This document shows positions 178 to 25,626 of a stretch of DNA of 64,000 nt, piece by piece. The number at the start of each line of letters is the position of its first letter. The stretch's first letter is position 1. The position numbers were made by a program, and so were the translations under genes. Origin of the DNA: Actinomycetes bacterium (GTDB lineage: Bacteria; Actinomycetota; CADDZG01; JAHWKV01); assembly GCA_029263075.1 (NCBI GenBank), contig JAJCYE010000031.1:5340-69339 (forward strand), read 5' to 3'. A model generated the notes under the pieces. It did not search any database. It worked only from the letters and a program-made list of their open reading frames with translations, and had not been told where the DNA came from.

Positions 178-3100
178 ATGGCCAATAACCAGTACCTAGC
201 TCCACCTAAGTCCCCACCCTTGGCCTTCATAGTCCTAACACCCGCCGGCACGCCCGATGCCAGGCTCGCGATTGCCGCGTGCCGGGCCGGTGCAACGGGC
301 GTCTTGAACCTTGAGTTCACCCAGGACCGGCCAAAAGTTATGCGCGCCCTGAGCACGCTGGCGACCCACGCCGGAGCGTCCTTCGGAGTGATGGTGGACG
401 CCTCCTCCCCCGAACTGCTTCACGCTGTGCTCGAGGCTACGCCGACGGGGCTTGGGACCGTCATCCTGACCAACCCGGCCAGCGTACCCATGGAGGCGGC
501 GGTCCTCGCCGCCCGCAAAGCCGGCAAACGGGTCCTGGTGGTGGTTACGTCTCTCCCGCAGGCCCTGGCCGCGGCTCAGCACCCGGTCGACGGGCTCATC
601 GCCAAAGGCAACGAAGCCGGCGGGTGGGTGGGCGAAGAAACCTCTTTTGTACTGCTCCAGCGGCTGCTCCATTTGGTACGTATCCCCATATTTGCCCAGG
701 GCGGCATCGGGATGCACACCGCGGCGGCGTGTTTTGCCGCAGGAGCGGCCGGCGTTGTGCTCGACAACCAGCTTTTGTTGACCCGAGAGTCGCCGCTCGG
801 CGGCAGAACCCGCTCCCGGGTAGCAACCATGGACGGCAGCGAAACCCAGGCCGTCGGGTCATCGCTGGGCGCCACGTTCCGGGCCTACTCCCGGGGAGAT
901 TCGGCTATGACCGACATCCTCAGTCAGATGGAGGCGGCCGAACTCATCTCACACGACGACCCCACTCAGGCACGCGAAAGCTGGCGAGCGGCCCTCAACC
1001 GTTCGGTTGACTGGGATACGGAAGGAGCACTGTGGCCCGCCGGGCAGGACGCCGCGTTCGCCTCCGGCTTCGCCGGCCGGTACGTCACGGTCGGTGGGGT
1101 GCTCGCCGCGATGCGGGCTTCGGTAGCCGAACACTGCCGGATGGCCAAGGCTCAGATGGCACTGGCAGCCGGTGGTCCCCTGGCAAGCTCACACGGCACG
1201 CACTACCCCATCGTGCAGGGGCCGATGACCCGGGTCAGCGACCGGGCTCCGTTCGCCGCCGCGGTTGCCGAAGCCGGCGCCCTCCCATTCCTGGCCCTGG
1301 CTTTGATGCGTGCCGACGAAATCCGGCCCTTGCTCCGGGAAACCGCCGAACAGATGGGCGGACGCCCGTGGGGCGTCGGCATCCTGGGGTTTGTGCCGCC
1401 GGCGCTGAGAGAAGAACAACTACGGGCGGTCCGGGAGGCCCTACCGCCGTTTGCCCTGATCGCAGGGGGCCAGCCCCACCAGGCGAAGGCCCTGGAAGAC
1501 CTGGGCATAGTCACCTACCTGCACGTCCCCTCGCCCGGACTCCTGCAGATCTACCTGCAGGAAGGAGCGCGCCGGTTTGTTTTTGAAGGGCGGGAGTGCG
1601 GCGGTCATGTCGGACCCCGCACCAGCTTCGTCCTTTGGGAGGCGATGATCGACGTACTCCTGGAGTTCAAAAAGAGCAACCGGGGCGCCGGCGACTTCCA
1701 GGTCCTGTTCGCCGGCGGGATCCACGACGCACTGTCGGCCCAGATGGTGTCCGCCCTGGCGGCGCCGGTAGTGGCTTCAGGGGTGAACATCGGCGTGCTG
1801 CTGGGCACTGCCTACCTGTTCACCGAAGAAGCAGTTGCGTCGGGCGCCATCCAGACCGCCTTCCAAAAAGCGGCGGTGGAGTGCACCGAGACCGTAATCC
1901 TGGCCGCCACGCCCGGCTACGCCACCCGATGCCTGCCCTCGCCGTTCTGCGAGACCTTCGAATCCGAGCGCCGTCGTCTCATCCTGCAGGGGACCCCCTT
2001 GGAGGAGATGAAGCAGGGATTAGAGGAGTTGAATATCGGTCGCCTCCGGATCGCCAGCAAGGGAGTGAACCACAACCCCAAGTTCGGCCACAAGCAGGAC
2101 GAGCCGAAGTTGTTGGGCGTCAAAGCCGAAGACCAGTGGGAACAGGGGATGTACATGATCGGCCAGGTGGCCTCACTCCGGGACCGCACCGTCACCCTTG
2201 CCGAACTTCACGCCGAAGTTTCCGACGGGTGCGCCGCCCTGATACAGGAAATGCGCGAGCCTTCCGGCGACGACGAGTTCTCCAGGCCCCGCACCGACAT
2301 TGCCATCGTCGGGATGTCCTCGATCCTGCCCGGTTCCGCCGACCTGGACGCCTTCTGGGCCAACGTCTTGAACAAGGTCGACGCCATCCGGGAAGTGCCC
2401 GCCGACCGGTGGGACTCCAACCAGTACTTCGACCCGGACCCGGGCGCCGAGGACAAGGTGTATTCCAAGTGGGGCGGATTCATCGACGAGGTGGCATTCG
2501 ACCCGCTCCATTGGGGCATGCCGCCCAGTTCCCTCACCTCGATTGAACCCTTCCAGTTGCTGGCGCTGGAGTTGGTGCGCAGCGCAGTAGAGGACGCCGG
2601 ATATACCCACCGACCCTTCGCCCGGGAACGTACCTCGGTCATCCTGGGCGCCGGAGGCGGCGCGCCGGACCTAACCGCCGGCTACGTTGTCCGATCCAGC
2701 TTGGCCGGCCTCTTCGGATCCGAGATGTCGGCGGAGTTAACCGAACGGCTGGACGGGACTCTTCCCGAATGGACCGAGGACTCGTTCGCCGGGCTTTTGA
2801 TGAACGTCGCCGCCGGGCGGGTGGCCAACCGCTTCGACTTCGGGGGCATCAACTACACCGTGGACGCGGCGTGCGCTTCGTCGCTGGCCGCCGTATACCT
2901 GGGTATCCGCGACCTTCAGGCCCGCACCAGCGACGTGGTTATCGTCGGCGGCGCCGAGGGCATCCAGAACCCGTTCGACTTTTTGTGTTTCGCAAAAACC
3001 CACGCCCTCTCGCCCACCGGCCGATCCCGACCCTTCGACGCCGAGGCCGACGGGATCGCCATCAGCGAGGGCTTCGCCTCCTTGTTTCTCAAGCGCCTGG

Positions 3101-6100
3101 ATGATGCAGAACGGGACGGCGACCGGATCTACGCGGTCATCCGGGGCGCCGGCGCCTCCAGCGACGGCAAAGACAAGGGCCTGACGGCCCCCCGCCCTGA
3201 GGGCCAAATGCGGGCTTTCCGCCGCGCCTACCAGGAGGCTGGGTTCTCACCGGCATCGGTCGGTCTGTTCGAGGCCCACGGCACCGGCACGGTTGCCGGG
3301 GACCAGGCCGAAATCTCGTCGTTGACCCAACTGCTGACCGAAGCCGGGGCCGAACCACAAACCTCCGCCATCGGGTCCGTAAAGTCGATGATCGGCCACA
3401 CCAAAGCCACCGCCGGCGTGGCGGGGTTGGTCAAGATGGCCAAATCTCTGCACCACCGCATCCTTCCTGCCACCCTCGGGGTGGTTACCCCGAACCCCAA
3501 ACTCCGCCAGGAGGGATGCCCCCTCTACGTCAACTCGGAGACCAGGCCGTGGATCCGGGCGGACGACAAAGAACCCCGCCGTGCTGCGGTCAGCGCCTTC
3601 GGCTTCGGCGGCACCAACTTCCACGTGGTGTTGGAGGAGTACGCCGGGGACTACCTGCAGGCCGAAGACCCCTCCATGCACGAGTGGCCCGACGAACTCT
3701 TTTTGTGGCGGGCGGCCAACTCGGCGGACCTGATCTCCTCGGTGGACGAACTCTTGTCCGCTCTGAAGGCCCAGGCACGGCCCCGCCCGGCCGATTTGGC
3801 GTTTACGCTCAGCCTTGCAGCCGGCGACACCCCTGAAGGCGGTTCGGCGCTCGCCATCGTGGCCGGCACCTTGGAGCTTCTAACCGAACGCCTTGTGGCG
3901 GCAAGAGAACTCTTGACCAACAACCCCGGGCGGAACCACCAGGCCCAGGGCATCCACATCTGCAGCGAGCCCTTTGCCGGCCCGGACCGGGTGGCCTTCG
4001 TCTTCCCCGGACAGGGGTCGCAGACGGTCGATATGGGCAAAGACCTGGCGGTCATGTTCCCCGAAGCCCGCGCGGCCCTCGATCGGGCGGATGAAGTGCT
4101 CGCCTCCTATATGGACAGTCCGCTCAGTACCCTCATCTACCCACCGCCGGCCTTCACCGCCGAAGCCAAAAAAGCTCAAGGCGCCGCACTGACCCGCATC
4201 AACGTCGCTCAGCCCGCGCTGGGAGCGGTGGAGGCCGCGATGCTTCGGGTGCTCGAGGGGTTGGGTATCGCCCCCGATATGGCCGCCGGGCACAGCTACG
4301 GCGAGTTCGTCGCCCTGTACGCCGCCGGTTCCATCGACTACCCGACCCTTCTTCGCCTCTCGGAGGCGCGGGGCCGGTTCATGGCGGAGGCGTCCGAGGG
4401 CCGTGACGGCGCAATGGCGGCCGTGATTGCGCCCGCCTCCCAGCTTGCCCCCCTGGTCGGGGACCCGGATCTGGTTCTTGCCAACCTGAACTCGCCGAAG
4501 CAGACCGTTATCTCAGGGCCGGCGGCCTCGGTTGAGCGGGCCATCGGGTGGTGCGATCAAAACGGGGTCAAATCCCGCCGGCTTGCGGTTGCAGGCGCCT
4601 TCCATTCGCCGCTGGTGGCATCAGCACAGGAGCGGCTGGCCGAAATCCTTGAGCACAGTCCACTGTCGCCGCCCACCCTTCCCGTCTTCTCCAATACAAC
4701 CGGAACCCGCTATCCGGAAAGCGTAAAAGAGATGTCGGACCTGCTGGCGGGCCACCTTGCCCGGCCGGTCCGGTTCATCGACGAAATCGACGCCATGTAC
4801 ACATCCGGTGCTCGGATCTTCTTGGAGGTCGGCCCGCGCAACGTCCTCACCGGGCTGATCCGGCAGATCCTCGGCGACCGTCCCCACCTGGCGATCCCGC
4901 TGGACACCCCCGGGCGGGGCGGGCTTACCTCGTTGCTCAACGTTGCCGGCGCGCTCTTCGTGGAAAGGGTCGGGGTCGACCGGGATCGGCTGTTCCGGGG
5001 CAGGGCGTTGCGCAAGCTGGATCTAGCCCGGCTCAAGGAGGAGACCGGCAAGCCGGTTTACTCCCCCACCACCTGGATGGTGAGCGGGGCCGGTGTACGC
5101 CCTGCCGGTCGGCCGCGCAAGCAGGCGGTGCTACCGGTTCCGATATCACTTACCGAAAACGGGGTCCCCCTTCCCCAGGTCCCGGCATTTCAGCCCACGA
5201 CCCCCCTCCCCCGGCCGGACCGGGCCGGCGAGGTGGCCGCCCGGCCAACGCCGGCGGCGCCGGAAGGCGAAAGTGTCGTCGACCATTTCCAACGGGTTAT
5301 GCAGCGCTTCCTCAAGGTCCAGGAGTCGGTCATGCTCGCCGCCTTGAGCGGCAACCCGGTCCCGGCCGCAGGACCGGCCCCGCAAATCCCGGTTTCGCCC
5401 ATGGCTCCCACACCCGAAGCCGCACCGGAACCGGCCCCCGCTGCGGTCGAGGATGCGCCCGTTCCGGCCCCCGCGCCGGATGTGGCCGACGCCGGCGTGA
5501 CCCTGCCGGCAATGAACCGGGAGCAGATCACCGCCCAGCTTCTTTCCATCGTCAGCGAACGGACGGGGTACCCGGTGGAGACCCTGTCCCTGGAAGCGGA
5601 TCTGGAGGCGGACCTCGGCGTAGATTCCATCAAACGGGTGGAGATCGCCGGGGCAATCAACCAGGTCATCGCCGGCCACTTCGCAGAGTCGGTGGAGTTG
5701 GAGTTGTTGACCGGGGCCAAAACCCTCCGGGGGATGATCGACGAGCTCGACACGTTTGCCAAAAATCGGGTGGGCGAACAACCCGCGGCAGCACAGGCAG
5801 CGGCCAAAGACCCCGAGGTGGTACCGGCCGGGGCGGGGACGGTGGAGCGGTTCACAGTCCTGGCGGCGCCGGCTCCGCCGGTCACGAGGTCGGCCGGGCT
5901 GAACCCCGACGGGATAGTGGTGATCCTGGACGACAATCTCGGCGTCGCAGAGAGGCTCGCTGAGACGCTGAAGGAGTTGGGGCTGCGGTCCCTGCGCCTG
6001 GGGCTTGCCGGGTTGACCCCGAGCGAAATTACGGGTTACCTCACCCACAACATCGACCAGATGCACGCCGGCGGGACGGCATCCGCGCTGGTGGACCTGA

Positions 6101-8340
6101 GGTCCCTGGGTTCGGCAAAGGCACCCACCGCGGGAGATATCGAGACCTTCTTCGACCTGGCCAAGGCCCTCAGGCAGGACCTGATGGCGGCGGCGGAAAA
6201 GGGGGGCGCCGCCGTTGTCGGCACGACAAGCCTGGACGGTCACCTTGGGTTAACCGGACAGTTCGACTATCCGAACCACGCCTGGAACGCGGGCTTCCTC
6301 AAGTCGCTCGCCAAGGAGTGGCAGCCGGTCCGCGCCAAGAGTTTGGACATCAAGTCAACCGACGCGGCGACGATTTGTGGAATCGTTCTCTCGGAGTTGT
6401 TCACCGGCGACCCGACGGTGGAGGTGGGCTACGGCGCCGACGGGCTGCGGCGGACCGCCAAGATGAGACGAGCGCCGCTCGCTCCGGCGGGGTCCGAGGT
6501 CTTCCTTGACCCGGCTTCGGTGATCCTGGTCACCGGCGGCGCACGGGGCATCACCGCGGAGTCCGCACTCGCCCTGGCGCTTGAGAGGCGCTGCCGGTTG
6601 GTTCTGGTCGGGCGGACCGCCGTCCCACCGGAGGCCGAGGCGCCCCCAACCGCTGGGCTTACCGATGAACGGGAACTGAAGAAGGCCATATTCGAGGAGC
6701 TCGCGGCGGGCGGCAGCACCCCCAGGCCGGTGGAGATTCAATCCCGCTACTCCCGGTTGATGCGTGAACGGCAGGTCCGGGACAGCCTGGAACGCTTCGC
6801 CTCCGCCGGCGTTAACTTCACATACCTGAATTGCGACGTCTCCGACGCCGCCGCTTTCGCAGCGCTACTGGACGAGGTCTACCAGCGGTTCGGGAGGATC
6901 GACGGCGTCATCCACGGAGCCGGGGTGATCGAGGACCGCCTGCTTGAGGACAAGACGTTCGACTCGTTCCTTCGGGTATTCCAGACCAAAGTGACCGCGG
7001 CCAACATTCTCGCGGCGAAACTACGGCCCCAGACCCTGAAGTTCCTGGTCTTTTTCAGCTCGGTCTCCGGCCGGTTCGGAAACCGGGGACAGGCCGACTA
7101 CGCTTCGGCCAACGAGGTCTTGAACAAGCTGGCCCAGAAGCTGGACCGGGCGTGGCCCGGTCGGGTGGTGGCAATCAACTGGGGGCCCTGGCACACCACC
7201 GGGATGGTGACGGAAGAAGCCAAGCGACAGTTTGCATCCCAGGGTGTCGGCCACATCCCTGTTGACGTCGGGGCACGCATGATGATCGAGGAGATCAACG
7301 CAGGAAGCGCCGCCCCGGCAGAGGTCGTGATCGCCGACCTGGGACCGGCCGCCGAGCAGTTCCTCGATAACGCCGAGGAACCCGGCTTCCGAGCTGATGC
7401 TCTACCCCAAACGGTGCAGCCGGCCCTGCGTCCGCTCGTGGCCGGCGCTCGACTGGAGCCATTCGCGTCCGGACTTCGGGTGAACCGGACTTTCGACCCG
7501 GACCAGGACCTATACCTTGCCGATCACGTGCTGGACGGCAAGCCGGTAGTCCCCTTTGCGGTGGCCATGGAACTCATGGCCGAGGTGGCGCTGGCGGGCT
7601 GGCCCGAGATGGGGATCGTCGAGATCCACGACATCCGGGTGCTGAGCGGTCTTGTTATAGATTCGGCCCGGCGCGAAGTGACCGTGGAAGCTCGGGAGCT
7701 TCCCGCCAACAACGGCGGAGCCCTTCGGGTGCGGGTCGCCGTGGGTTCCGGGGGCGAGCGGGGGCGGATCCACTACAGTTCGGTCGTCGATTTACTCCCC
7801 CTGCACCTGATCGACGCTCTTCCGAGACTGGGCAACGGGCACTTCAAACCCCTTGAGGACGCCGAACAACACCCGTGGGGAATGAGGCGCACCTACGACG
7901 AGTGGCTGTTCCACGGCCCCATCTTCGAGGCGATCCAGGGCGTTGATGGGATGTCCCCCCTTGGCGCTTCCGGTCACATGCGCACTTCGGCGCCGTCCCA
8001 ATGCCTGGCCGGTGAGCCATCCGGGACCTGGATCGTCGACCCGATCCTGGTGGACGCCGCGTTCCAGCTACAGGTCCTATGGGCCCGCAAGCACTGGGAC
8101 ATGACAATCCTCCCCGCGAGCGTCGGCTCATGGCACCCGACTCCTAACCTGGACCTGGGGCGCTTCGCCTCCAGCAGCATCGCCTGCGAGTTACGGATCC
8201 GTCCGGAGAGCGCCGAGCCCATCAGCCACACCGACTTTGCTTTCTATGGACCGGACGGGCGGATCCTGGCAACAATCAGCGATTTTCAAGCGACCGGGAG
8301 CCGGGCACTCAACCGCCTCTCCACCAGGAGGACAACGTGA
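178..8340 (+). CDS. Pfa/HglE-like iterative type I PKS/FAS megasynthase (ER-like, PfaD-type ER, KS, AT, ACP, KR, DH)
   Basis: 2720-aa ORF. Domain order was read from motifs. NMO/PfaD-like TIM barrel 1 covers aa ~15-215 (EAGGW, nt 613-627). The PfaD-type enoyl reductase has GPMTRVSD (nt 1219-1242) and ECGGH (His codon 1606-1608). KS has DAACASS (Cys codon 2872-2874), HGTGT and GHT. AT has GHSYGE (Ser codon 4294-4296) and GAFHS. A P/A-rich linker precedes the ACP, LGVDSIKRVE (Ser codon 5626-5628). KR has VTGGARGIT and a catalytic Tyr at codon 7099-7101. The PKS-type DH has HVLDGKPVVP (His codon 7525-7527) and DAAFQ. No clear SD precedes ATG 178, so the start is somewhat uncertain. Confidence 0.92.
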   Translation: MANNQYLAPPKSPPLAFIVLTPAGTPDARLAIAACRAGATGVLNLEFTQDRPKVMRALSTLATHAGASFGVMVDASSPELLHAVLEATPTGLGTVILTNPASVPMEAAVLAARKAGKRVLVVVTSLPQALAAAQHPVDGLIAKGNEAGGWVGEETSFVLLQRLLHLVRIPIFAQGGIGMHTAAACFAAGAAGVVLDNQLLLTRESPLGGRTRSRVATMDGSETQAVGSSLGATFRAYSRGDSAMTDILSQMEAAELISHDDPTQARESWRAALNRSVDWDTEGALWPAGQDAAFASGFAGRYVTVGGVLAAMRASVAEHCRMAKAQMALAAGGPLASSHGTHYPIVQGPMTRVSDRAPFAAAVAEAGALPFLALALMRADEIRPLLRETAEQMGGRPWGVGILGFVPPALREEQLRAVREALPPFALIAGGQPHQAKALEDLGIVTYLHVPSPGLLQIYLQEGARRFVFEGRECGGHVGPRTSFVLWEAMIDVLLEFKKSNRGAGDFQVLFAGGIHDALSAQMVSALAAPVVASGVNIGVLLGTAYLFTEEAVASGAIQTAFQKAAVECTETVILAATPGYATRCLPSPFCETFESERRRLILQGTPLEEMKQGLEELNIGRLRIASKGVNHNPKFGHKQDEPKLLGVKAEDQWEQGMYMIGQVASLRDRTVTLAELHAEVSDGCAALIQEMREPSGDDEFSRPRTDIAIVGMSSILPGSADLDAFWANVLNKVDAIREVPADRWDSNQYFDPDPGAEDKVYSKWGGFIDEVAFDPLHWGMPPSSLTSIEPFQLLALELVRSAVEDAGYTHRPFARERTSVILGAGGGAPDLTAGYVVRSSLAGLFGSEMSAELTERLDGTLPEWTEDSFAGLLMNVAAGRVANRFDFGGINYTVDAACASSLAAVYLGIRDLQARTSDVVIVGGAEGIQNPFDFLCFAKTHALSPTGRSRPFDAEADGIAISEGFASLFLKRLDDAERDGDRIYAVIRGAGASSDGKDKGLTAPRPEGQMRAFRRAYQEAGFSPASVGLFEAHGTGTVAGDQAEISSLTQLLTEAGAEPQTSAIGSVKSMIGHTKATAGVAGLVKMAKSLHHRILPATLGVVTPNPKLRQEGCPLYVNSETRPWIRADDKEPRRAAVSAFGFGGTNFHVVLEEYAGDYLQAEDPSMHEWPDELFLWRAANSADLISSVDELLSALKAQARPRPADLAFTLSLAAGDTPEGGSALAIVAGTLELLTERLVAARELLTNNPGRNHQAQGIHICSEPFAGPDRVAFVFPGQGSQTVDMGKDLAVMFPEARAALDRADEVLASYMDSPLSTLIYPPPAFTAEAKKAQGAALTRINVAQPALGAVEAAMLRVLEGLGIAPDMAAGHSYGEFVALYAAGSIDYPTLLRLSEARGRFMAEASEGRDGAMAAVIAPASQLAPLVGDPDLVLANLNSPKQTVISGPAASVERAIGWCDQNGVKSRRLAVAGAFHSPLVASAQERLAEILEHSPLSPPTLPVFSNTTGTRYPESVKEMSDLLAGHLARPVRFIDEIDAMYTSGARIFLEVGPRNVLTGLIRQILGDRPHLAIPLDTPGRGGLTSLLNVAGALFVERVGVDRDRLFRGRALRKLDLARLKEETGKPVYSPTTWMVSGAGVRPAGRPRKQAVLPVPISLTENGVPLPQVPAFQPTTPLPRPDRAGEVAARPTPAAPEGESVVDHFQRVMQRFLKVQESVMLAALSGNPVPAAGPAPQIPVSPMAPTPEAAPEPAPAAVEDAPVPAPAPDVADAGVTLPAMNREQITAQLLSIVSERTGYPVETLSLEADLEADLGVDSIKRVEIAGAINQVIAGHFAESVELELLTGAKTLRGMIDELDTFAKNRVGEQPAAAQAAAKDPEVVPAGAGTVERFTVLAAPAPPVTRSAGLNPDGIVVILDDNLGVAERLAETLKELGLRSLRLGLAGLTPSEITGYLTHNIDQMHAGGTASALVDLRSLGSAKAPTAGDIETFFDLAKALRQDLMAAAEKGGAAVVGTTSLDGHLGLTGQFDYPNHAWNAGFLKSLAKEWQPVRAKSLDIKSTDAATICGIVLSELFTGDPTVEVGYGADGLRRTAKMRRAPLAPAGSEVFLDPASVILVTGGARGITAESALALALERRCRLVLVGRTAVPPEAEAPPTAGLTDERELKKAIFEELAAGGSTPRPVEIQSRYSRLMRERQVRDSLERFASAGVNFTYLNCDVSDAAAFAALLDEVYQRFGRIDGVIHGAGVIEDRLLEDKTFDSFLRVFQTKVTAANILAAKLRPQTLKFLVFFSSVSGRFGNRGQADYASANEVLNKLAQKLDRAWPGRVVAINWGPWHTTGMVTEEAKRQFASQGVGHIPVDVGARMMIEEINAGSAAPAEVVIADLGPAAEQFLDNAEEPGFRADALPQTVQPALRPLVAGARLEPFASGLRVNRTFDPDQDLYLADHVLDGKPVVPFAVAMELMAEVALAGWPEMGIVEIHDIRVLSGLVIDSARREVTVEARELPANNGGALRVRVAVGSGGERGRIHYSSVVDLLPLHLIDALPRLGNGHFKPLEDAEQHPWGMRRTYDEWLFHGPIFEAIQGVDGMSPLGASGHMRTSAPSQCLAGEPSGTWIVDPILVDAAFQLQVLWARKHWDMTILPASVGSWHPTPNLDLGRFASSSIACELRIRPESAEPISHTDFAFYGPDGRILATISDFQATGSRALNRLSTRRTT

Positions 8341-12127: not shown

Positions 12128-12430
12128 TTGATAGCCCTGAGCGCAGATCAGGTAACTTCCGATGTGATCGAAGCAATAGGGGAGATGGCGGGAGACTGGC
12201 AGTACACCGGTCCCCTCACCGTCGAGACCCGCATGTATGCCGACATGGAGATCCAGTCGCTCGACTTTGTGACCCTGGCCTCGGCGATGGTCAACCGATA
12301 CGGGCCCATCCCGTTCGACGAGTTTTACACCCGGCTCGGTGAGCAGCCGCCCGAAACTCGGGAGGTCACCGTTGGCCAGTTTGCGGAATTCGTATTCAAG
12401 AGCCTCAATCGGGTGGCGGATTCGGCTTGA
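12128..12430 (+). CDS. free-standing acyl-carrier-protein-like protein
   Basis: The ORF-track frame runs 11984-12430. I prefer the TTG at 12128 because GGAGG (12114-12118) sits 9 nt upstream. It has the size and helix pattern of an ACP. The candidate phosphopantetheine site is MEIQSLDFVTLASAM (Ser codon 12257-12259), with Q rather than D before the Ser. The start codon is uncertain. Confidence 0.55.
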   Translation: MIALSADQVTSDVIEAIGEMAGDWQYTGPLTVETRMYADMEIQSLDFVTLASAMVNRYGPIPFDEFYTRLGEQPPETREVTVGQFAEFVFKSLNRVADSA

Positions 12431-12448
12431 TCTATCGGGAGGGCACAA

Positions 12449-13318
12449 TTGCCAAAGGTTGAAATCGCCAGCGGGGTCAAGATCCACTACGAAAGAGTGG
12501 GGAAGGGTCCGGACGTGGTACTCATCCACGGGATCGGCGGCCACCTGGCCACCTGGCACTTCAAGATCGTCCCCCTGCTCTGGGACCGCTACAACACCCT
12601 CACCTACGACCTGAGGGGCCACGGTTACTCCGAGATGACCGAGACCGGATACACCCCAACCGAGCTGGCAACCGACCTCGTTCAGCTACTGGACGCACTG
12701 GGCATTGAAAAGGTCGACCTGGTAGGGCACAGCTTCGGAGGGGATATCGCCCTCTACTTTGCCTACTACTACCCCGAGCGGGTCAACCGGGTCGTCTTGA
12801 TTGAAGCGTTGATCCCGGCCATGGCAATGATCCTGACCCGGGACGACTTTGCCCGGGCGGATTGGGCGGCCAACGTCCTGGAGAAGATGGGCGTCCCGAT
12901 CCCCGATGAACGGCGTTTCGACACCGGCTACATGCTGAACCAGGCCGTCAATATGCCCAACAAGTGGGGCCCCATGAAGGGCATGGCGCGGAAACGCAAA
13001 CGCCACGACGACTGGCTGGAGAAGCTTTACACCACCACCTCGGTCCTCAAGGACGCGCTCGACATCGGTGAACTGACGCGCGAGAACATCCCCCAGATCC
13101 AAACACCGGTACACCTCATCTACGACTCCGGCTCGCTGATGTGGCACAAGAGTTTTGCGTTCCTAAGGGACAACTTGCCGAATGTCACCTGGGTTCTTCT
13201 GGATACCGAGTCGGGTCAAATGGCCCACTTCGCCCCACTGGAGAAGCCTGAACTCGTCGTCGAACACATCCTCAACGGCCTGACGCCGTCCGGACAAACC
13301 TCCAAGAAAGCCGGCTGA
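12449..13318 (+). CDS. alpha/beta-fold hydrolase (possible thioesterase/offloading enzyme)
   Basis: HGIGG oxyanion motif, GHSFGG nucleophile elbow and a C-terminal His (QMAHF). TTG start preceded by GGGAGGG. Same strand as the PKS genes and immediately downstream of them. Confidence 0.85.
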   Translation: MPKVEIASGVKIHYERVGKGPDVVLIHGIGGHLATWHFKIVPLLWDRYNTLTYDLRGHGYSEMTETGYTPTELATDLVQLLDALGIEKVDLVGHSFGGDIALYFAYYYPERVNRVVLIEALIPAMAMILTRDDFARADWAANVLEKMGVPIPDERRFDTGYMLNQAVNMPNKWGPMKGMARKRKRHDDWLEKLYTTTSVLKDALDIGELTRENIPQIQTPVHLIYDSGSLMWHKSFAFLRDNLPNVTWVLLDTESGQMAHFAPLEKPELVVEHILNGLTPSGQTSKKAG

Positions 13319-13374
13319 TCATCTCGGGTAACAACTCGACCGACCCACCCCCCAACGCCGGCCCGAGCCGGGGC

Positions 13375-14436
13375 TTGGGGAACGAAGCGCCGATCAGTCA
13401 CGACCAAACCGACGGTCCGCCGATCTTCATCGTCGGCAACGGCCGTTCCGGCACGACTCTGATGGAGTTGATGCTGTCCGCTCACCCCAGGATCTACATC
13501 TGCCACGAAGTCGAGTTTTACCGCTGGCTCCGCGTGGGCAAGAACCTTCCTTTTGAGGAGATCCTGAGGGGATTTCTCGGCACCATGAACTTCCGCTGGC
13601 AGCGTCTCCCGCCGGAGGCGGTCCTGCATGGCCTGCCTTCTCCCCTCAAAAGGGAGCACGGGTGGATGGTGATGGAACGGATCATGCGACTGAAGGCTGC
13701 GGCTTTCGGACGAGTGCGGTACGGAGACAAGACCCCGGCCCACACCCCGGAACTAGGCCGCATTTACCGGGACTTTCCCGACGCCAAGGTCATCCTGATG
13801 GTTCGTGATCCCCGGACGCTCACCCAATCCGTGTCAAAAATGCCCTACGGGTCGTCGGTGGACCTCCCCAACTGCCTGGTCAACGAGATCTGGCACCGCA
13901 AGGTGGCCGCCTTCGGAGAAAGGCTTCTCCGAGTGAGGTTAGAAGACCTGCAGCACGACCCCAGGAGCCAGATGCAGCGGGTTCTCGAATTTGTGGGCGA
14001 GGACTGGAGCGAATCGGTTCTGGACCACCCCAACCACCTGCCCGACCCCCAACAACTCCCGGACATGCCGTGGTTCAAGTCTCCGGAAAAGCCGGTCCAA
14101 CCGCAGAAGGATCCCAAGAGCGGCCTCAGTCCCGAAAGAATCCGCCTGGTGGAGTGGTTGTGCCGGAGGACCATGAAAGAACACAACTACCGGCCGGCAC
14201 AACTCGCGAACCCGCCCGGGCGTCTGAGGTTGTTCCGCGAATACGCTGGCCAGCTTCCGGAGACCATCCGGTACGGCCGCAAGGTCGCCCGGCTCAAGCG
14301 CTCCTTCCGGGACGTCGAGGCCTGGAGCCTGGAGCACCCCGGAACCCGCCGGCAGATTGAGCGCTTGAATCCCGAGTGTTGGAAACACTATCCCGGGTAC
14401 TCTTGGCCCCTACCTCCGGAATCGATAGAGTTCTAG
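13375..14436 (+). CDS. PAPS-dependent sulfotransferase family protein (ST1)
   Basis: 5'-PSB loop FIVGNGRSGTTLM and 3'-PB-like VILMVRDPRTLTQS. Full-length paralogue of the 17144-18268 gene. TTG start, no obvious SD. Confidence 0.85.
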   Translation: MGNEAPISHDQTDGPPIFIVGNGRSGTTLMELMLSAHPRIYICHEVEFYRWLRVGKNLPFEEILRGFLGTMNFRWQRLPPEAVLHGLPSPLKREHGWMVMERIMRLKAAAFGRVRYGDKTPAHTPELGRIYRDFPDAKVILMVRDPRTLTQSVSKMPYGSSVDLPNCLVNEIWHRKVAAFGERLLRVRLEDLQHDPRSQMQRVLEFVGEDWSESVLDHPNHLPDPQQLPDMPWFKSPEKPVQPQKDPKSGLSPERIRLVEWLCRRTMKEHNYRPAQLANPPGRLRLFREYAGQLPETIRYGRKVARLKRSFRDVEAWSLEHPGTRRQIERLNPECWKHYPGYSWPLPPESIEF

Positions 14437-14465: not shown

Positions 14466-14801
14466 ATGGAAGAGACCAACACCACGCCGGACGAGCGAGC
14501 GGAGGCCGAGACGGCCCTGCGCGCGTCCCTGGACGACATCTTCGGCGGCGGGGGGATGGCAATTTTCCAGGACTTTACCTCCCAGGCCTACGTCGATCTG
14601 TTGAAGCTGCTCCCCCATTTCTCGGACCTGCCCACGCCGGACCGATATGAAATCGTCGGATGCGAATCGCAGGACGGGGAGTTCAGCTTCGACGTCCTGA
14701 TCGTCACGCCTGAGCGCAGCGTGGACATCTTCATGGTGATGTCGCATGTCGGCGAGGCGTGGAAGGTGGCACGCCTCAAGGTGCCCGGGATTAGGGACTA
14801 A
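14466..14801 (+). CDS. hypothetical small acidic protein
   Basis: In-frame ATG at 14466 inside ORF 14376-14801, chosen because the upstream part would overlap the ST1 end. No motif recognised. Codon usage is consistent with coding. Confidence 0.45.
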   Translation: MEETNTTPDERAEAETALRASLDDIFGGGGMAIFQDFTSQAYVDLLKLLPHFSDLPTPDRYEIVGCESQDGEFSFDVLIVTPERSVDIFMVMSHVGEAWKVARLKVPGIRD

Positions 14802-15928
14802 CGCACCAACCCGGCGCTTCGGTTCCCCTCGATACCCGGACCGCCGGGTTGAAACTCCGCCCGAGCATCAAAGTGACGTTCCCCGGCATACCCCCGGAGC
14901 CACCTACCGGCATCGTCCCGGTCGCCGAGATAGTGGTCGAAGAAAGCGCAGACCAACGCGTCGATCACCTTGAGGTGGTGGGAGCGGCTGCGAGCGCCCA
15001 CCGGGAGCGCCTGTCGCAGATCCTCCAGGTAGTCCGAACCGCCGTCCCCCTCCGCCCCTTCTTCGGCGGTTATCGCCCCCCTCCCCCCAAAGGTCAGGTG
15101 GGTTGCCCCGATCAGCGTCACCAGATAGCGGTCGGCGGAGCTGATCTGATCAAAAGCGGTCCGGCGCCACCGGATCGGCCGGCCCCCCGGGGCGAAGTCC
15201 CTGGTGCCGGTAAGGAGCATCACCGGCGTCTCGAATCCGTCCCACGCCCCCGGGGCGATACCCATGGTTCCCGTGCCCTGCGGCGACATCGCCACCACGG
15301 CCTGCACGCGGGGGTCGGTAAGGGACGCTTCGTCGTCGCCCAACTCCACCTTCATCCCACCCAAGGCCATGGCGGTCGAGGCACCGAACGAATGCCCCGC
15401 CACACCGATACGAGCAGGGTCGACGCGAAACGGCGAGTCCGCGTCGGTCAACGAGTCGATGACGAATGAGATGTCCTGCGGGCGGTCCCGCAGGTTGACT
15501 GGATCATCGAGGGCGGCAGCGACCCAGCCGGTGCGGTCCCTTTTGAGCCCGGCACGCAACGCTGCCGAGTCGCTGCCCGCATGGGTCACCACCGCGACCA
15601 GGTAACCGCGGGCGGCCAGGTGCGCCCCCAAGTACCCATAGTCCTCCCGGCTGGCTCCCAACCCGGGCGAGAAGACAATCAGCGGCCGAGCCGGGCCGCC
15701 GCCGCCCGCCGGCCGGTACACCCGCACCGGGACCTGCCTACTGCGGGAGGGGTCACTGAAAGTCAGGTCGGACTGCTCCACCCGGCTACCGTCGCCGGCC
15801 CGGTAGAGAGCGCGCTCGGTCGCTTTCGTCCGGATGGTCGACGCAAGCAACAAGACAACGAGCAGCAGCAACCCGATGACCGAAGCCGCTCGCCGGCTCC
15901 TGCGCCCACCGCCCGATCTGCCCATCAC
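14798..15928 (-). CDS. membrane-anchored/secreted alpha/beta hydrolase (PAF-acetylhydrolase / dienelactone-hydrolase-like)
   Basis: N-terminal Arg-rich segment plus a hydrophobic helix (VIGLLLLVVLLLAS). GHSFGAST nucleophile elbow. FSPGLGASREDY is typical of this lipase/esterase clade. Confidence 0.8.
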   Translation of the reverse strand: MMGRSGGGRRSRRAASVIGLLLLVVLLLASTIRTKATERALYRAGDGSRVEQSDLTFSDPSRSRQVPVRVYRPAGGGGPARPLIVFSPGLGASREDYGYLGAHLAARGYLVAVVTHAGSDSAALRAGLKRDRTGWVAAALDDPVNLRDRPQDISFVIDSLTDADSPFRVDPARIGVAGHSFGASTAMALGGMKVELGDDEASLTDPRVQAVVAMSPQGTGTMGIAPGAWDGFETPVMLLTGTRDFAPGGRPIRWRRTAFDQISSADRYLVTLIGATHLTFGGRGAITAEEGAEGDGGSDYLEDLRQALPVGARSRSHHLKVIDALVCAFFDHYLGDRDDAGRWLRGYAGERHFDARAEFQPGGPGIEGNRSAGLVR

Positions 15929-15988: not shown

Positions 15989-16621
15989 CTACGGCCCCTG
16001 GGTTGGGCTTATCGGGCCCAGCGATGGCGCTATCGGCCCGATCGAAGGCACCGAAAGGGTGATTGCGGGCGAAGGCGAGCTTTGAGGGGTGGTTTGGGAA
16101 CCGGAGATCAGTTCGAACGACGAAGCCAGCCGGTCGAAGCTGTCCGACTTTACGCTCTTGGGGGCCACGACCTGCAGTACGTACATCCGGCTCCCGACCA
16201 TGACTGCCCGTCCGGTGAGCAGGTTCGGGGCCGCCTCGGTGGTGAAGTCGATCGCGTCCCGTGTTAGGAACGTCGTCGGGTTCTTGGTCAGATTCAGTCC
16301 TGAGACCGCGGAGGACGCGCCTTCGGCGGCCGAATCCAGGACCTTCTTCAGATTTTCGCCGGCGGGTTCGGCCGCGTAATCCACATAGGAGACCGAAACC
16401 GCTTCGTTGTCGGACTCGGAGGCGTAGACCACCAACTCAAGCGGATCACCGGCCGCCGGAACCCTCTGGACCTGCTTCGCCGGTTCGCTGGGAAACTCGG
16501 CTTTGAAGCGTCCCTGTGGGGAACTGAACGTCGTCCAAGCCGCCTCATCCGCACCCGAACCGCAGGCGGCCAACAGCAAGAGGATCAGGCCAAGCGACAG
16601 CGACTTAACCCCGCGGCTCAT
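15989..16621 (-). CDS. hypothetical lipoprotein
   Basis: The internal ATG at 16621 gives MSRGVKSLSLGLILLLLAACGSG (lipobox LAAC). The longer ORF up to 16756 adds a non-protein-like N-terminus. The C-terminus is Ser/Pro-rich. Confidence 0.65.
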   Translation of the reverse strand: MSRGVKSLSLGLILLLLAACGSGADEAAWTTFSSPQGRFKAEFPSEPAKQVQRVPAAGDPLELVVYASESDNEAVSVSYVDYAAEPAGENLKKVLDSAAEGASSAVSGLNLTKNPTTFLTRDAIDFTTEAAPNLLTGRAVMVGSRMYVLQVVAPKSVKSDSFDRLASSFELISGSQTTPQSSPSPAITLSVPSIGPIAPSLGPISPTQGP

Positions 16622-16715: not shown

Positions 16716-17147
16716 ATGCACAGCAGCCTAACGGTGAAGAACAATGTCATCGTCATGGTGATTTCGGCAGGCGTAGCTGCCGCGGTCTATCTGCTGAGCA
16801 GCCCGCTTCCGACCGTACCGATGCTGGTAGGTGCCGGGTCGGGCTTTCTGGTCGGTATCTTCCAAGCACGAAGCGCCGCCGCCACGCCGAAGGCGTTCCA
16901 GCGGGCGGTCGACGGGGCGGACATTCGAGACGCCCTCAAGTCGAGCCCGGCCGGGAACACCGCCATCACTCTCCACTGGATTGCAATGGTGGCCACCATT
17001 GGGACCGCCGTGTGGATAGGCAAACCGTTGGCCGGGACTTTGGGCGGTTGGGCCACGTACGAAGTTTTCCGGCGCCTGGCGTTGCTCAAATCTTTGTCGA
17101 TGCTCGGCCGGACCGCACCACAACCGGGGACCAGGGCCTCCGGCTAG
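16716..17147 (+). CDS. hypothetical small membrane protein
   Basis: Hydrophobic segments (VIVMVISAGVAAAVYLL, MLVGAGSGFLVGIF, IAMVATIGTAVWI). Overlapping alternative frames are Arg/Gly-rich and do not look like protein. Its stop overlaps the stop of the convergent ST2 gene. Confidence 0.5.
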   Translation: MHSSLTVKNNVIVMVISAGVAAAVYLLSSPLPTVPMLVGAGSGFLVGIFQARSAAATPKAFQRAVDGADIRDALKSSPAGNTAITLHWIAMVATIGTAVWIGKPLAGTLGGWATYEVFRRLALLKSLSMLGRTAPQPGTRASG

Positions 17148-18268
17148 GCCAACTCCCCGGCGTCCTCGGCGTCCTGGGCGGGCTCCGGTACCTCAGGTGC
17201 CTCGGGATAGACGAAGTTCGGGTTCCGCTCCCAGTAGGCGGGGTTGAGTCCCCGGGTCCGCTCACGGCCCCCCTCGTCGTACCAATCCCAGCGATTGGGT
17301 TTGGCAAAGTACGCGCCCAGGCGGACGTAAGCCACGGCGTAACGGACGGTTTCGGGGATTGAACCCAAGATCAGCCGAGCCTTGCCGAACATCCCCAGCT
17401 TGGGCACATCCGCCGGCTCGTAGCCGTGGAGCTTCATGCTCTTGCGGCACAACCACTCGATGAGTGCAATCCGCTCCGGGCTCAAGCGGCGCCAGGCCGG
17501 TTCCTGTTGCTGAACCGGCGCCTCCGAGGAGCTGAACCACGGAACATCCGGTAGTCGACCAGGATCGGGGTCATGGTTCGGATGGTCAAGAACCGCCTCG
17601 TCCCAGGGCTCTCCAACAAACTCGAGCACCCGCTCCATCTGCGCTCGGGGGTCGGCCTGCAAATCCTCCAACCGCACAATCAACATCTCCTCGGTTTGGC
17701 GGAGAACAGCTTTGCGGGTCAGTTCGTTGATCAAACAGTTCGGGAGGTCCTTGGCACAGCCCCAAGGCATGTTCGAAACCGAAGCGGCCTCGCCCCGGGG
17801 GTCCCTGACCATCACAATGACCCTGGCATCCGGAAAGTCACGAAAAATACTCCGTAGGTACCAGATGTGCGGCGGGGACTTGTCACCGTACCGAACCTTG
17901 CCCAGGCTCGCCGACTTGAGCCGCATCATCACCTCGAACAGTTTCCACGCCTCGGGACGGGGCAGTGAATCGGGCAGGCGTTCGGTGACGGTCCGGGGGT
18001 GCAGGCGCAACCACCTGAAGTTAACGGTTGAGAAGTACGGATCGAGGAGGTCGGAAACCGACCGGGTTCTCAAGGCGCCGGTAAACCATGCGTAGTAAGC
18101 GAGTTCGTGGCAGACGTAGATGTTCGGGTGCGCCGACATCATCATCTCCATCAGCGTGGTGCCGGAACGGCCGTTGCCGACGACGAAGATAGGTGGACCC
18201 TGCGTAGCTTCGTACGGGATCTGGCTCGTGGGGTCGAGTATCGGCTGGCGGGACGAACCGTCGGTCAT
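17144..18268 (-). CDS. PAPS-dependent sulfotransferase family protein (ST2)
   Basis: FVVGNGRSGTTLME (5'-PSB) and VIVMVRDPRGEAAS (3'-PB). Paralogue of ST1. Its ATG overlaps the stop of the upstream methyltransferase gene. Confidence 0.85.
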   Translation of the reverse strand: MTDGSSRQPILDPTSQIPYEATQGPPIFVVGNGRSGTTLMEMMMSAHPNIYVCHELAYYAWFTGALRTRSVSDLLDPYFSTVNFRWLRLHPRTVTERLPDSLPRPEAWKLFEVMMRLKSASLGKVRYGDKSPPHIWYLRSIFRDFPDARVIVMVRDPRGEAASVSNMPWGCAKDLPNCLINELTRKAVLRQTEEMLIVRLEDLQADPRAQMERVLEFVGEPWDEAVLDHPNHDPDPGRLPDVPWFSSSEAPVQQQEPAWRRLSPERIALIEWLCRKSMKLHGYEPADVPKLGMFGKARLILGSIPETVRYAVAYVRLGAYFAKPNRWDWYDEGGRERTRGLNPAYWERNPNFVYPEAPEVPEPAQDAEDAGELA

Positions 18269-19122
18269 CTAGGGGTTTGCGGCGGAGCCGGATCAATCGA
18301 CTTAGCGGTGCCGTCGGCGTTGGGTGCCTCTCCGCCTGCGGCGGTCACCGGCTTGACTGCCGAGGTGAGGAAGTACTTCTTGACGCCGATTCCGGTGATC
18401 GGGACGTAGAGGCGAGAAAAAATCCAGATGTACAAGAACTGCTTGGTGTCCAGTTCCCCCCGGGATCGAGCCTCGGAGGGCCAGCGCTTGAGGTTCCGGC
18501 AGAAACCTCCCCAGCAGTCATCCGTGACGTCGTCGACCAGCACGTCCTCGAACCCCGCCTTCTCCTGGTGGGCCTTGAGATCCGCAGCATCCTTGAGGAG
18601 GTTGGCCTGCCAAACCCACTTGGGCCCGCCGCCGATGTCCGACATGACCAGCCGTCCGCCGGGCTTCAGCACCCGGTAGGCCTGCTTGAAAAAGGCGTCG
18701 CGGGTCTTAAAGTGGTGCGCCGCCTCAACGCACAGGACGTTGTCAAAGGAGTTGTCGGGAAAACTCAGGTGGGCCGCGTCCATGTAGGTGAACTGGACCC
18801 CCGGGGCGTTCGTACGGCCCTTCGCCAACTGAACTTCGGAGAGATTGATGGCCTGAATGTCCTCAGCCTCAAAGTGTTTGAGCAGTTGACGGGTGGAGGC
18901 GCCCAAACCGCACGCCACATCCAGGATCTTCCCTCGCTTCTGCGGGATGAACGAGACCAGCTTCTCCACCAGAGCTTCGCTTGCCTCGCTCTGGCAGGTG
19001 GCCCCGTCGGCCCAGTATCCGTAGTTATAAAAGTCGCTGTGACCGTAGTAGGCCTGCTGGACCGCTTCACTCATCGCTTGGTCGTATTGGGCGAGCATCC
19101 GCTCTTGTTTGCTGGCTGTCAT
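18265..19122 (-). CDS. class I SAM-dependent methyltransferase
   Basis: Motif I ILDVACGLGAST, motif post-I/II FDNVLCVEAAHHF, and KPGGRLVMSD. Confidence 0.85.
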   Translation of the reverse strand: MTASKQERMLAQYDQAMSEAVQQAYYGHSDFYNYGYWADGATCQSEASEALVEKLVSFIPQKRGKILDVACGLGASTRQLLKHFEAEDIQAINLSEVQLAKGRTNAPGVQFTYMDAAHLSFPDNSFDNVLCVEAAHHFKTRDAFFKQAYRVLKPGGRLVMSDIGGGPKWVWQANLLKDAADLKAHQEKAGFEDVLVDDVTDDCWGGFCRNLKRWPSEARSRGELDTKQFLYIWIFSRLYVPITGIGVKKYFLTSAVKPVTAAGGEAPNADGTAKSIDPAPPQTPR

Positions 19123-19149
19123 TATTCGGCCTTTGACTTCAGGGCTGGA

Positions 19150-19866
19150 TCAAACCCGGTTGGTAATTCTCTTGTCTACGAACTCGCCGAGACAGGTTCC
19201 GCCCATCGCGGCGGAGATGAAGTTCAGGTATTCCGGCTGCGACGGCTCCTGCGTGTGGTAGAAGCCGTTGAACGGAACATGTTTGTAGCAGATTCCTCCA
19301 TCGGGGATCGGCGTCACCAATTGGGGAAACGACGTAATCAAAAAGTACTGGGCGAGCCCGGGGGTCGCGTCACCGATCAACAGGCTCTTGGCGAACCAAT
19401 GAGTCGGGCAGCCATCCCCTCCCAGGAACACCGGAAGTTTACACATCCCGTTGTTCCCGTCCCCCCCGCCGTAGAGAACCACCTGAGACACCATGTCCTG
19501 AATGCCCAGGTACATCATGGCGAAGCGGCAACTCATTACGCTGGCGGACCAGCAGGCCAGGTTCACCTTGCCGGTGGCCGGCGCCAGTTCTTTGACCCGG
19601 TTGGCCGTCTTCAGCGCGGTCCGGAAGTTGGACTCTACGCCGTTGAACTCGTCGAAATAGTGGACCTGGTAGCCGTCGGCAATCAAACGGTCCCGCACCG
19701 GGATCAGGTCCTGAATTCCTTCGCCGAGCCCGGGGATCAAAATCACCGGGTATTTGGGCACCTGGGCCTTGGCGGGCGCGGCCAGCAGGAGGGCAGCGAG
19801 GCAAAGCGCACAGGACAATGCCGCTAAACGTTGCAGAAGCCCTGGATTGGCAATGGGGTACGACAC
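19150..19866 (-). CDS. secreted class-2-lipase-like alpha/beta-fold protein with atypical nucleophile elbow
   Basis: Signal peptide (LCLAALLLAAPAKAQ). PVILIPGLGEG...VNLACWSASVM aligns by eye with Bacillus LipA-type PVVMVHGIGG...VDIVAHSMGG. The elbow is C-W-S-A-S rather than A-H-S-M-G. GTG start is uncertain. Confidence 0.6.
   Translation of the reverse strand: MSYPIANPGLLQRLAALSCALCLAALLLAAPAKAQVPKYPVILIPGLGEGIQDLIPVRDRLIADGYQVHYFDEFNGVESNFRTALKTANRVKELAPATGKVNLACWSASVMSCRFAMMYLGIQDMVSQVVLYGGGDGNNGMCKLPVFLGGDGCPTHWFAKSLLIGDATPGLAQYFLITSFPQLVTPIPDGGICYKHVPFNGFYHTQEPSQPEYLNFISAAMGGTCLGEFVDKRITNRV

Positions 19867-23962: not shown

Positions 23963-25626
<1,664 letters not shown>

Follow-up and report, generated by a model that had tools for sequence, protein, structure and literature searches.

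Secondary lipid synthase clusters of the PfaA/HglE-like kind occur in many phyla, and products are known for only a handful of them. The heterocyst glycolipid cluster of the Nostocales (Type F) comprises hglE and its partners, the glycosyltransferase HglT and the exporter DevBCA, and in CurM (curacin A; 4gbm) and the olefin synthase (Ols) of Synechococcus PCC 7002 (4gox) the chain is offloaded by an acyl carrier protein (ACP), a sulfotransferase (ST) and a thioesterase (TE). Here we compare these systems with a polyketide synthase (PKS) locus in a stretch of 64,000 nt (hereafter the window, in whose positions all coordinates are counted) from a 78-kb contig in a metagenome-assembled genome (MAG) of an uncultured member of the Actinomycetota. 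The same contig also occurs in Logan run SRR15505514. The locus encodes two synthases (PKS1 and PKS2), a discrete ACP-like protein, an alpha/beta hydrolase (ABH1), two STs (ST1 and ST2) and a methyltransferase.

Judged by sequence comparison, this cassette has a glycosyl and a sulfate flavour of tailoring, and the sulfate flavour forms a coherent subclade. The ST-bearing form and its conservation across phyla are undescribed, as far as the searchable literature shows. With somewhat less than even confidence, we propose that it makes an undescribed class of bacterial sulfolipid, in which a sulfate ester, not a sugar, heads a Type-M Pfa-like secondary lipid, and that this lipid is produced by Smaragdicoccus niigatensis, uncultured Actinomycetota and Chloroflexia. 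The genes that carry the argument are as follows, where PAPS is 3′-phosphoadenosine-5′-phosphosulfate and SAM is S-adenosylmethionine.

PKS1, 178..8340, plus strand: 2720 aa, ER-ER-KS-AT-ACP-KR-DH, fused PfaD-PfaA-like iterative synthase (Pfam, TIGR02813, motifs)
PKS2, 8337..11903, plus strand: 1188 aa, KS-AT-ACP (GHSSGE; LGIDSIKRVEI) (Pfam, orthologue architectures)
Discrete ACP-like protein, 12128..12430, plus strand: 100 aa, invariant Ser44 (seven-orthologue alignment)
ABH1, 12449..13318, plus strand: alpha/beta hydrolase, GHSFGG (Pfam Abhydrolase_1, 4e-29)
ST1, 13375..14436, plus strand: PAPS-type sulfotransferase (Pfam Sulfotransfer_3, 6e-29)
ST2, 17144..18268, minus strand: Sulfotransfer_3 (2e-26), paralogue of ST1 (Pfam, BLASTP)
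Methyltransferase, 18265..19122, minus strand: class I, SAM-dependent (Pfam Methyltransf_11, 2e-22)

The synthase pair is of a described but uncharacterised kind, and its closest named counterpart, matched by architecture description, is Type M. Shulse & Allen 2011 (PMC3098273) list Type M for Renibacterium salmoninarum, Frankia, Actinosynnema mirum and Streptomyces avermitilis, with the product unknown. A 2026 paper (PMC13291983) describes a fused pfaDA with a second synthase carrying a phosphopantetheinyl transferase (PPTase) as a still uncharacterised secondary lipid synthase, and gives as known secondary-lipid products the heterocyst glycolipids and the phenolic lipids of Azotobacter. As in Type M, an ER is fused to the N-terminus of a PfaA-like KS-AT-ACP-KR-DH protein, a second KS-AT synthase follows directly, and the cassette is spread across phyla without a known product. 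In contrast to Type M, PKS2 of the window has neither a DH nor an integrated PPTase. The likeness is one of description, and the actinobacterial comparator was a Micromonospora locus, not the named Type M genomes. An earlier, sequence-only reading of the window did not recognise the gene set as a characterised pathway. This statement holds for the set, since our full-text literature search found no publication on it and none linking the cassette to an ST or a product, but it has to be amended for the synthase pair, which matches the described Type M.

The cassette across genomes

A scan of GTDB genomes, one for each species, with an ST alignment (A1) yielded 80 loci, and a metagenome scan with an alignment of the hydrolase (A2) yielded 80 more. 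All window proteins were compared by tblastn with the ST-family genome loci to test which genes co-travel. The order PKS1-PKS2-ACP-ABH-ST recurs, within unrelated flanks, in L004, L005, L007, L008 and L087, where L004 is a 1.8-Mb contig, L007 is the cultured Smaragdicoccus niigatensis DSM 44881 and L005 and L008 are Chloroflexia MAGs. A 4-nt overlap of the ABH and ST genes is found in L004, L007 and L008. In Smaragdicoccus, only the five core genes are present, set between housekeeping genes such as those for RNase HII, a ChlI-like ATPase and DprA. Methyltransferase orthologues with 45–51% identity lie directly 3′ of the ST in L005 and L008. Thus, the tie of the ST to the synthase extends beyond adjacency in one contig, and the co-localisation of ST and methyltransferase with the synthase pair, noted from the window sequence, is also found in both Chloroflexia loci. 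Two further loci, L001 and L003, are close relatives of the window lineage; their synteny is uninformative on pathway membership because the housekeeping flanks are likewise conserved.

The majority form of the cassette is tailored differently. In the cultured Paludisphaera borealis (L085; CP019082.1, 5016569-5037447) and Micromonospora sp. FIMYZ51 (L086; CP134706.1, 4325628-4346479), the order is PKS1 (NMO...KR-DH), PKS2 (KS-AT...DH), a small ACP, a PF01663 phosphodiesterase-family protein, ABH, short-chain dehydrogenase/reductase (SDR), glycosyltransferase (GT) and one or more methyltransferases (MT), and no ST is present in either locus. We examined the genes 3′ of the ABH in the 52 informative loci, namely those metagenome loci and L085–L087 in which at least 1.2 kb is present 3′ of the ABH. 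An SDR and/or GT was found in 44/52, an ST in 1/52 and neither in 7/52; partial STs also occur on two short contigs. ST-linked ABHs are 55–62% identical to ABH1, while all others in the metagenome scan reach at most 50%, and therefore the ST form is a minority subclade of a common cassette. Since SDR, GT and MT genes lie 3′ of the ABH in the majority form, the ST occupies the position of head-group tailoring. Compared with the majority cassette (L085, L086 and the metagenome loci), the window thus has two STs and a methyltransferase in place of SDR/GT/MT. The GT-type majority cassette, which is frequent in the metagenome contigs sampled, itself appears to have no assigned product.

The heterocyst glycolipid cluster is likewise built on a PfaA-like iterative synthase, and there a long hydroxylated chain receives a polar head group. 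The likeness extends to the sister GT-type cassettes, which have a glycosyltransferase and, in Paludisphaera borealis, a MacAB/DevBCA-like exporter. In contrast to the heterocyst cluster, the window synthase is split differently, no CLF-containing HglC and no GT homologue are found, and the proposed head group is sulfate.

Several features of individual loci may be recorded here. L004 and L005 hold both an ST and a GT. In L087, whose ABH is 62% identical to ABH1, a PapA_C/condensation-like protein (12397-13485) is encoded two genes 3′ of the ST, together with two methyltransferases; this set of genes suggests that some lineages may pass the chain to an acceptor in place of hydrolysing it. The alkaline-phosphatase-superfamily (PF01663) enzyme between ACP and hydrolase is an odd component of the GT-type cassette.

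If the proposal is true, it would provide the first product assignment for a widespread orphan cassette. The five-gene core of the sulfate flavour is found in Smaragdicoccus niigatensis DSM 44881, a type strain that can be cultured, and this makes an orphan MAG cluster testable.

Synthases and carrier proteins

Domains were called with Pfam and NCBIfam/TIGRFAM profiles on the window proteins, and the genes and domains named in the sequence-only reading were all located where it had placed them (Pfam, motif reading). PKS1 scores 1146 bits on TIGR02813 (PfaA), past the curated cut-off of 1010 bits. Its domains are a first ER-like domain (approximately aa 100–290), a second ER (337–677), KS (707–1101), AT (1274–1563; GHSYGE), ACP (1787–1855; LGVDSIKRVEI), KR (2115–2339) and a PKS-type DH (2424–2706; HVLDGKPVVP). 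The ER matches NMO (4e-33) and FabK (TIGR03151, 2e-38), which identifies it as PfaD-type, and a second NMO-like domain was found at the N-terminus (1e-15) when the first 340 residues were scanned alone. Therefore, the complete reductive set of ER, KR and DH read earlier from the sequence is present, but with two ER-like domains, not one. PKS1 residues 1–677 (window 178-2208) constitute two tandem NMO/FabK-type ER-like domains, and the same long N-terminus occurs in L052, an Acidobacteriota MAG, and L059, an Acidimicrobiales MAG. The ER domains of a thraustochytrid polyunsaturated fatty acid (PUFA) synthase form a heterodimer, according to the title of a 2026 paper (PMC13311796). By analogy, the tandem ER pair of PKS1 may be an intramolecular counterpart of this heterodimer.

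The PKS1 and PKS2 genes overlap by 4 nt, and both proteins carry the LG[VI]DSIKRVE ACP motif, PKS2 consisting of KS-AT-ACP only, as had been read directly from the sequence. Each synthase has a single PP-binding domain and not a tandem array of 4–9 ACPs, and neither a PfaC-type KS-CLF nor a FabA-like DH was found in PKS1 or PKS2 by Pfam or among the best 25 NCBIfam matches listed for both. A canonical PUFA synthase (PfaABCDE) is thus ruled out on the single ACPs, the missing CLF and FabA-type DH and the lack of a detected PPTase, although a PfaA-type subunit and a PfaD-type ER are present. The earlier assignment of the pair as Pfa/HglE-like stands.

The discrete ACP is a real gene product, as the sequence-only reading supposed. 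It is 100 aa long, with the motif D[LM]x[LIM]xS[LI][DE] and an invariant Ser, and it is conserved 3′ of PKS2 in 7 loci. The Micromonospora orthologue gives a weak PP-binding match, the window copy has no Pfam match, and its ratio of nonsynonymous to synonymous substitution rates (dN/dS) is 0.12. All dN/dS values were computed against L001, a contig 83% related to the window. Across the 13 genes compared, small open reading frames (ORFs) included, they range from 0.05 to 0.25, and therefore all 13 are real coding genes under purifying selection. The housekeeping reference genes Ppx and PPIase (peptidyl-prolyl isomerase) both gave 0.11.

The window PKS2 ends after the ACP, and the C-terminal extension of its orthologues, which holds a DH and a PPTase-like region, is missing. 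As a result, it is approximately 500 aa shorter than the orthologues L007:3772-8820, L005:3557-8692 and L008:3523-8775. A DH lies 3′ of the ACP in PKS2 of L007 and L008, and a DH plus a Pfam ACPS domain in L020; the PKS2 tails of L005, L007 and L008 align to the start of the L020 PPTase region, and Pfam does not call them. No cassette-type DH/PPTase-like tail was found in the 64-kb window by tblastn with three tails or with a hidden Markov model of eight tails (best E 0.3). These cassette-tail searches detected no PPTase in the window; generic AcpS/Sfp-type PPTases (Pfam ACPS) were not scanned for.

The shortening of PKS2 and the lack of any match to cassette PPTase-like tails in 64 kb could mean that the locus is a decaying remnant, in which the loss of the DH/PPTase-like part inactivated the synthase and the other genes are drifting or have been co-opted. 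However, the tail loss is common to the window (1188 aa) and L001 (1200 aa), and PKS2 is intact at this length in both, with a dN/dS of 0.14, near the housekeeping value. For the ABH1 and ACP genes, dN/dS is 0.05 and 0.12, respectively. Every catalytic motif examined is present: both ACP motifs, the KS Cys and first His, the AT GHSxGE and the PKS1 DH HxxxGxxxxP are intact by motif reading. Moreover, the gene for a PPTase can lie in another part of the genome. We regard decay as the most improbable of the readings weighed in this study. Purifying selection persists on PKS2 and the cassette despite the tail loss.

We also considered whether loss of the PKS2 DH is the general source of a retained hydroxyl in the product. 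This was ruled out, since the PKS2 DH of other ST-type clusters is apparently intact, with the His and DxxxQ motifs kept.

Sulfotransferases, candidate release hydrolase and the fate of the sulfate

ST1 and ST2 are 52% identical (BLASTP 3e-125). In a neighbour-joining tree, built without bootstrap, they form sister branches, and every cassette-linked ST falls in one clade. This sister placement identifies the second ST as a lineage-specific duplicate. The two STs of the sequence-only reading are both real and both Sulfotransfer_3 proteins. The ST2 and methyltransferase genes overlap by 4 nt. From gene order and sequence, the ancestral layout is read as ABH-ST-MT, split here into ABH-ST1 and MT-ST2.

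The 5′-phosphosulfate-binding (RSGTT) and 3′-phosphate-binding (RDPR...S) motifs and Glu45 are invariant in the ST family (alignment A1). Glu45 of ST1 is aligned with a Glu of the tyrosylprotein sulfotransferase (TPST) TPST2, which we take to be the TPST catalytic base. The ST1 and LipA-like (see below) proteins were modelled with AlphaFold2 and compared with known structures by Foldseek; the mean confidence (pLDDT) of the ST1 model was 94.7. TPST1 was matched with an E-value of 4e-23 by the A1 profile and 2e-9 by Foldseek on the ST1 model; the Ols ST (4gox) with 5e-16 by profile, 4e-7 by Foldseek (template-modelling score, TM, 0.67) and 9e-9 by phmmer; and the CurM ST (4gbm) with 5e-11 by profile and 1e-6 by Foldseek. 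The mycobacterial Stf9 and Stf1 come next in the Foldseek ranking, after TPST, Ols and CurM. By sequence and by the fold of its model, ST1 is accordingly placed in the TPST/activating-ST/Stf structural group.

The ST family is small, with approximately 67 strong matches among 5.8 billion protein clusters. A PfaA-like KS lies within 10 kb of the ST in 13/80 genome loci. The family also adjoins PfaDA-like synthases in two further arrangements, upstream on the same strand in L052 and divergent in L059. CysNC and CysD adjoin ST homologues in 4 loci, including the cultured Oligoflexus tunisiensis (L013), which fits PAPS dependence of the family. Among STs away from PKS genes (L013, L021, L023, L049 and other Myxococcota), several adjoin CysNC/CysD and the pairing of ST and methyltransferase recurs; in Oligoflexus tunisiensis, the ST adjoins an LCM-family (carboxyl) methyltransferase. 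A homologue search of the window found no GT, LCM-type MT, CysNC/CysD or the conserved unknowns c32 and c36. An apparent neighbour family in 18 ST loci was discarded, as it consisted mostly of antisense-ORF artefacts (crude gene calling in high-GC DNA) with a few hexapeptide-repeat proteins.

Because TPST1 and TPST2 are the top profile and fold matches and most ST family members lie away from any PKS, the STs might have no lipid role and act instead as TPST/RaxST-like tyrosine sulfotransferases of proteins or peptides, or on other substrates, their adjacency to the synthases being incidental. The small unannotated ORFs flanking ST1 and ST2 also fit this reading. As in TPST1/2 and the bacterial RaxST, the PAPS motifs and the TPST2-aligned Glu are kept. 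Unlike TPST, ST1 and ST2 have a C-terminal extension of approximately 130 aa and their genes lie inside a lipid-synthase operon; unlike the TPST/RaxST setting, no precursor peptide or secretion genes are evident at the locus. Furthermore, the ABH-ST order, overlapping in 3 loci, is kept in both Actinomycetota and Chloroflexota although the flanks are unrelated, the tree unites the cassette-linked STs in a single clade, the ST family is paired with PfaDA-like synthases in three separate arrangements, and the small ORFs are unconserved beyond close relatives. We therefore consider incidental adjacency highly improbable.

ABH1 is the only candidate release enzyme, because the cassette has neither a TE nor a reductase domain, and its sequence makes it a putative chain-release or transfer enzyme. 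Ser95 and His260 are invariant in the family alignment, its dN/dS of 0.05 is the lowest in the locus, and more than 800 relatives were found at E<1e-20. The position of the ABH1 family after the ACP is kept in ST-type and GT-type clusters alike.

In the pathway that we propose, PKS1, which carries every domain for iterative, fully reducing extension, and PKS2, which adds a second KS-AT-ACP, would together build a long, largely saturated chain that keeps at least one hydroxyl, with phosphopantetheinylation supplied by a PPTase encoded outside the window. ABH1 would free the chain from its carrier protein, ST1 and ST2 would move sulfate from PAPS to one or two hydroxyls, and the methyltransferase would O-methylate a hydroxyl or a carboxylate. 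The sulfate would stay as the polar head group, in place of the sugar of the majority cassette.

We give even chances to retention of the sulfate as the polar head group of a long-chain lipid. The main argument is positional: the ST sits where the majority form has its SDR/GT/MT head-group enzymes. In addition, the hydrolase family occurs in majority clusters without an ST, and the duplicated ST, the methyltransferase and, in L004 and L005, the GT all need a functionalised product. If the lipid is sulfated, it would be a new type of envelope or surfactant lipid for bacteria, and the STs would add a stand-alone family of lipid sulfotransferases.

Several points weigh against retention. Sequence and fold are silent on whether the sulfate is kept or expelled, and both the family profile and the fold put the ST nearest to the tyrosylprotein sulfotransferases. 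In 67/80 ST genome loci, mostly of Myxococcota, no PfaA-like KS lies within 10 kb, and therefore the ST family is not dedicated to the cassette. No cassette member has a known product, so chain length and hydroxyl position are guesses. The PKS2 orthologues in other ST-type clusters keep an apparently intact DH. The window PKS2 has neither this DH nor the PPTase-like tail, and the cassette-tail searches detected no PPTase.

Expulsion of the sulfate is the essence of the hydrocarbon alternative raised in the sequence-only reading. In such a dissociated form of CurM/Ols offloading, ST1 would sulfate a beta-hydroxyacyl-ACP, ABH1 would hydrolyse the thioester, and decarboxylation with loss of sulfate would give a terminal alkene. 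The ACP, ABH and ST genes beside the terminal KS-AT-ACP recall the ACP-ST-TE tridomain, ST1 belongs to the same structural group and matches the Ols ST across its full catalytic core, and the 4-nt ABH/ST overlap suggests translational coupling. In contrast to CurM and Ols, the window proteins are discrete, their order is ACP-hydrolase-ST, and the adjoining module, PKS2, has no KR; in its orthologues, the ACP is followed by a DH that is apparently intact. ABH1 is of the family Abhydrolase_1, not the thioesterase type PF00975, and at least 44 loci that lack an ST have a member of its family at the same place, and therefore the role of ABH1 is independent of sulfate. The ST profile ranks TPST above the STs of Ols and CurM, and a second ST, a methyltransferase and the GT of L004 and L005 would have no obvious substrate on a hydrocarbon. 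The placement of the ABH1 family in many ST-free clusters and the profile ranking thus weaken the alkene product, which we consider unlikely. If an alkene is nevertheless made, Ols/CurM offloading would be seen here for the first time in a dissociated form.

Alternatively, the substrate of the STs could be not the polyketide but a polar acceptor, for instance a sugar or small alcohol, with the acyl chain then joined to the acceptor, as in sulfolipid-1. A GT adjoins the ST in L004 and L005, the PapA_C/condensation-like gene follows the ST in L087, and the Foldseek matches of ST1 include the mycobacterial Stf1 and Stf9. However, the window locus has no GT, PapA-type acyltransferase or sugar-pathway gene, Smaragdicoccus holds only the five core genes between housekeeping genes, and ABH1 is, by its sequence, predicted to be hydrolase-type. 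Unlike the STs of the mycobacterial sulfolipid-1 locus, ST1 and ST2 are Sulfotransfer_3 and not Stf0-type proteins; no PapA or MmpL match was obtained among the window locus proteins scanned, and a PapA_C-like protein was found in L087 only. Sulfation of a separate acceptor therefore seems decidedly unlikely, and we prefer retention of the sulfate on the polyketide chain.

Besides the Type M description and generic genome-mining mentions of hglE-KS, the literature search yielded one analogy, the swf cluster of sponge symbionts, which comes nearest to the pairing seen here. According to that report (PMC3908369), the cluster encodes the fatty acid synthase/PKS SwfA and the reductase-sulfotransferase SwfB, an alkyl sulfate product has been proposed, and the system is uncharacterised. 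Both systems combine an iterative FAS-like PKS with an ST. Unlike the synthases of the window locus, SwfA is a canonical KS-AT-DH-ER-KR-ACP protein, and the chain is released by a thioester reductase that forms one protein with the ST. The swf cluster has no PfaD-type ER, second synthase, discrete ACP or alpha/beta hydrolase, all of which are present in the window locus.

Methyltransferase, lineage-specific genes and flanks

The top NCBIfam matches of the methyltransferase are weak, each below its cut-off, and point to lipid or carboxyl O-methyltransferases. We tried it as an orthologue of the MT of GT-type clusters and ruled this out, as the two share 29% identity over the generic SAM-binding core only. 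The remaining genes of the locus are listed below; the methyltransferase and ST2 genes lie in one operon with the gene for the LipA-like protein, which comes first.

Small ORF, 14466..14801, plus strand: 111 aa, without Pfam match (called in L001 and L003)
PAF-AH/PETase-like serine hydrolase, 14798..15928, minus strand: GHSFGA, N-terminal hydrophobic anchor (Pfam PAF-AH_p_II, 1.6e-11)
Lipoprotein, 15989..16621, minus strand: 210 aa, LLAAC lipobox, without Pfam match (210-aa call as in relatives)
Hydrophobic membrane protein, 16716..17147, plus strand: 143 aa, without Pfam match (called in L001 and L003)
LipA-like protein, 19150..19866, minus strand: secreted minimal alpha/beta hydrolase, 238 aa (AlphaFold2 and Foldseek)
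Membrane-anchored protein, 19961..21160, minus strand: 399 aa, Pro/Ala-rich linker, unassigned C-terminal domain, without Pfam or PDB match

The named genes of the sequence-only reading are borne out by this list, but the plus-strand membrane ORF at 16716-17147 had been overlooked. Its three alpha/beta hydrolases are also correct at the level of fold (Pfam; AlphaFold and Foldseek for the secreted protein). The LipA-like protein has a signal peptide ending in ...APAKA/Q and gave no Pfam and no significant PDB sequence match; its AlphaFold2 model (pLDDT 72, from 7 sequences) matches Bacillus LipA by Foldseek (1.7e-7, TM 0.73). Its family comprises 7 clusters, all unnamed, among 5.8 billion protein clusters, with an invariant ACxSA nucleophile-elbow-like motif and six invariant cysteines.

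The earlier placement of all three hydrolases in the pathway is not supported. Only ABH1 is conserved with the synthase; tblastn found no homologue of the PAF-AH-like hydrolase, the lipoprotein, the LipA-like protein, the 399-aa protein or the small ORFs in any distant locus. Pathway membership of the PAF-AH-like and LipA-like hydrolases, the lipoprotein and the small ORFs is therefore unsupported, since they are present only in close relatives. The dN/dS values are 0.18 for the 111-aa ORF, 0.25 for the PAF-AH-like hydrolase, 0.21 for the lipoprotein and 0.25 for the 143-aa membrane protein. The secreted and membrane-bound hydrolases and the lipoprotein may handle lipid in the envelope.

No Rfam family was found in the locus, and the counts of terminator-like and promoter-like elements equalled the shuffled expectation. 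Around the two convergent gene overlaps, no terminator-like hairpins beyond chance level were found. These overlaps join convergent pairs at their 3′ ends by exactly 4 nt, the 111-aa ORF with the PAF-AH-like gene (14798-14801) and the 143-aa ORF with ST2 (17144-17147).

The gene for the 399-aa protein probably marks the edge of the locus, and a housekeeping block lies beyond it. This block (21200-40200) encodes cyclophilin, Ppx/GppA, DUF501, enolase, MazG, a SurA-like PPIase, Mfd, Prs, GlmU, tRNA-Gln, sortase, IspE, KsgA, an RpfB-like DUF348-G5 protein and a DNA-alkylation repair enzyme. Beside this conserved actinobacterial housekeeping block, the lipid locus has the look of an insertion.

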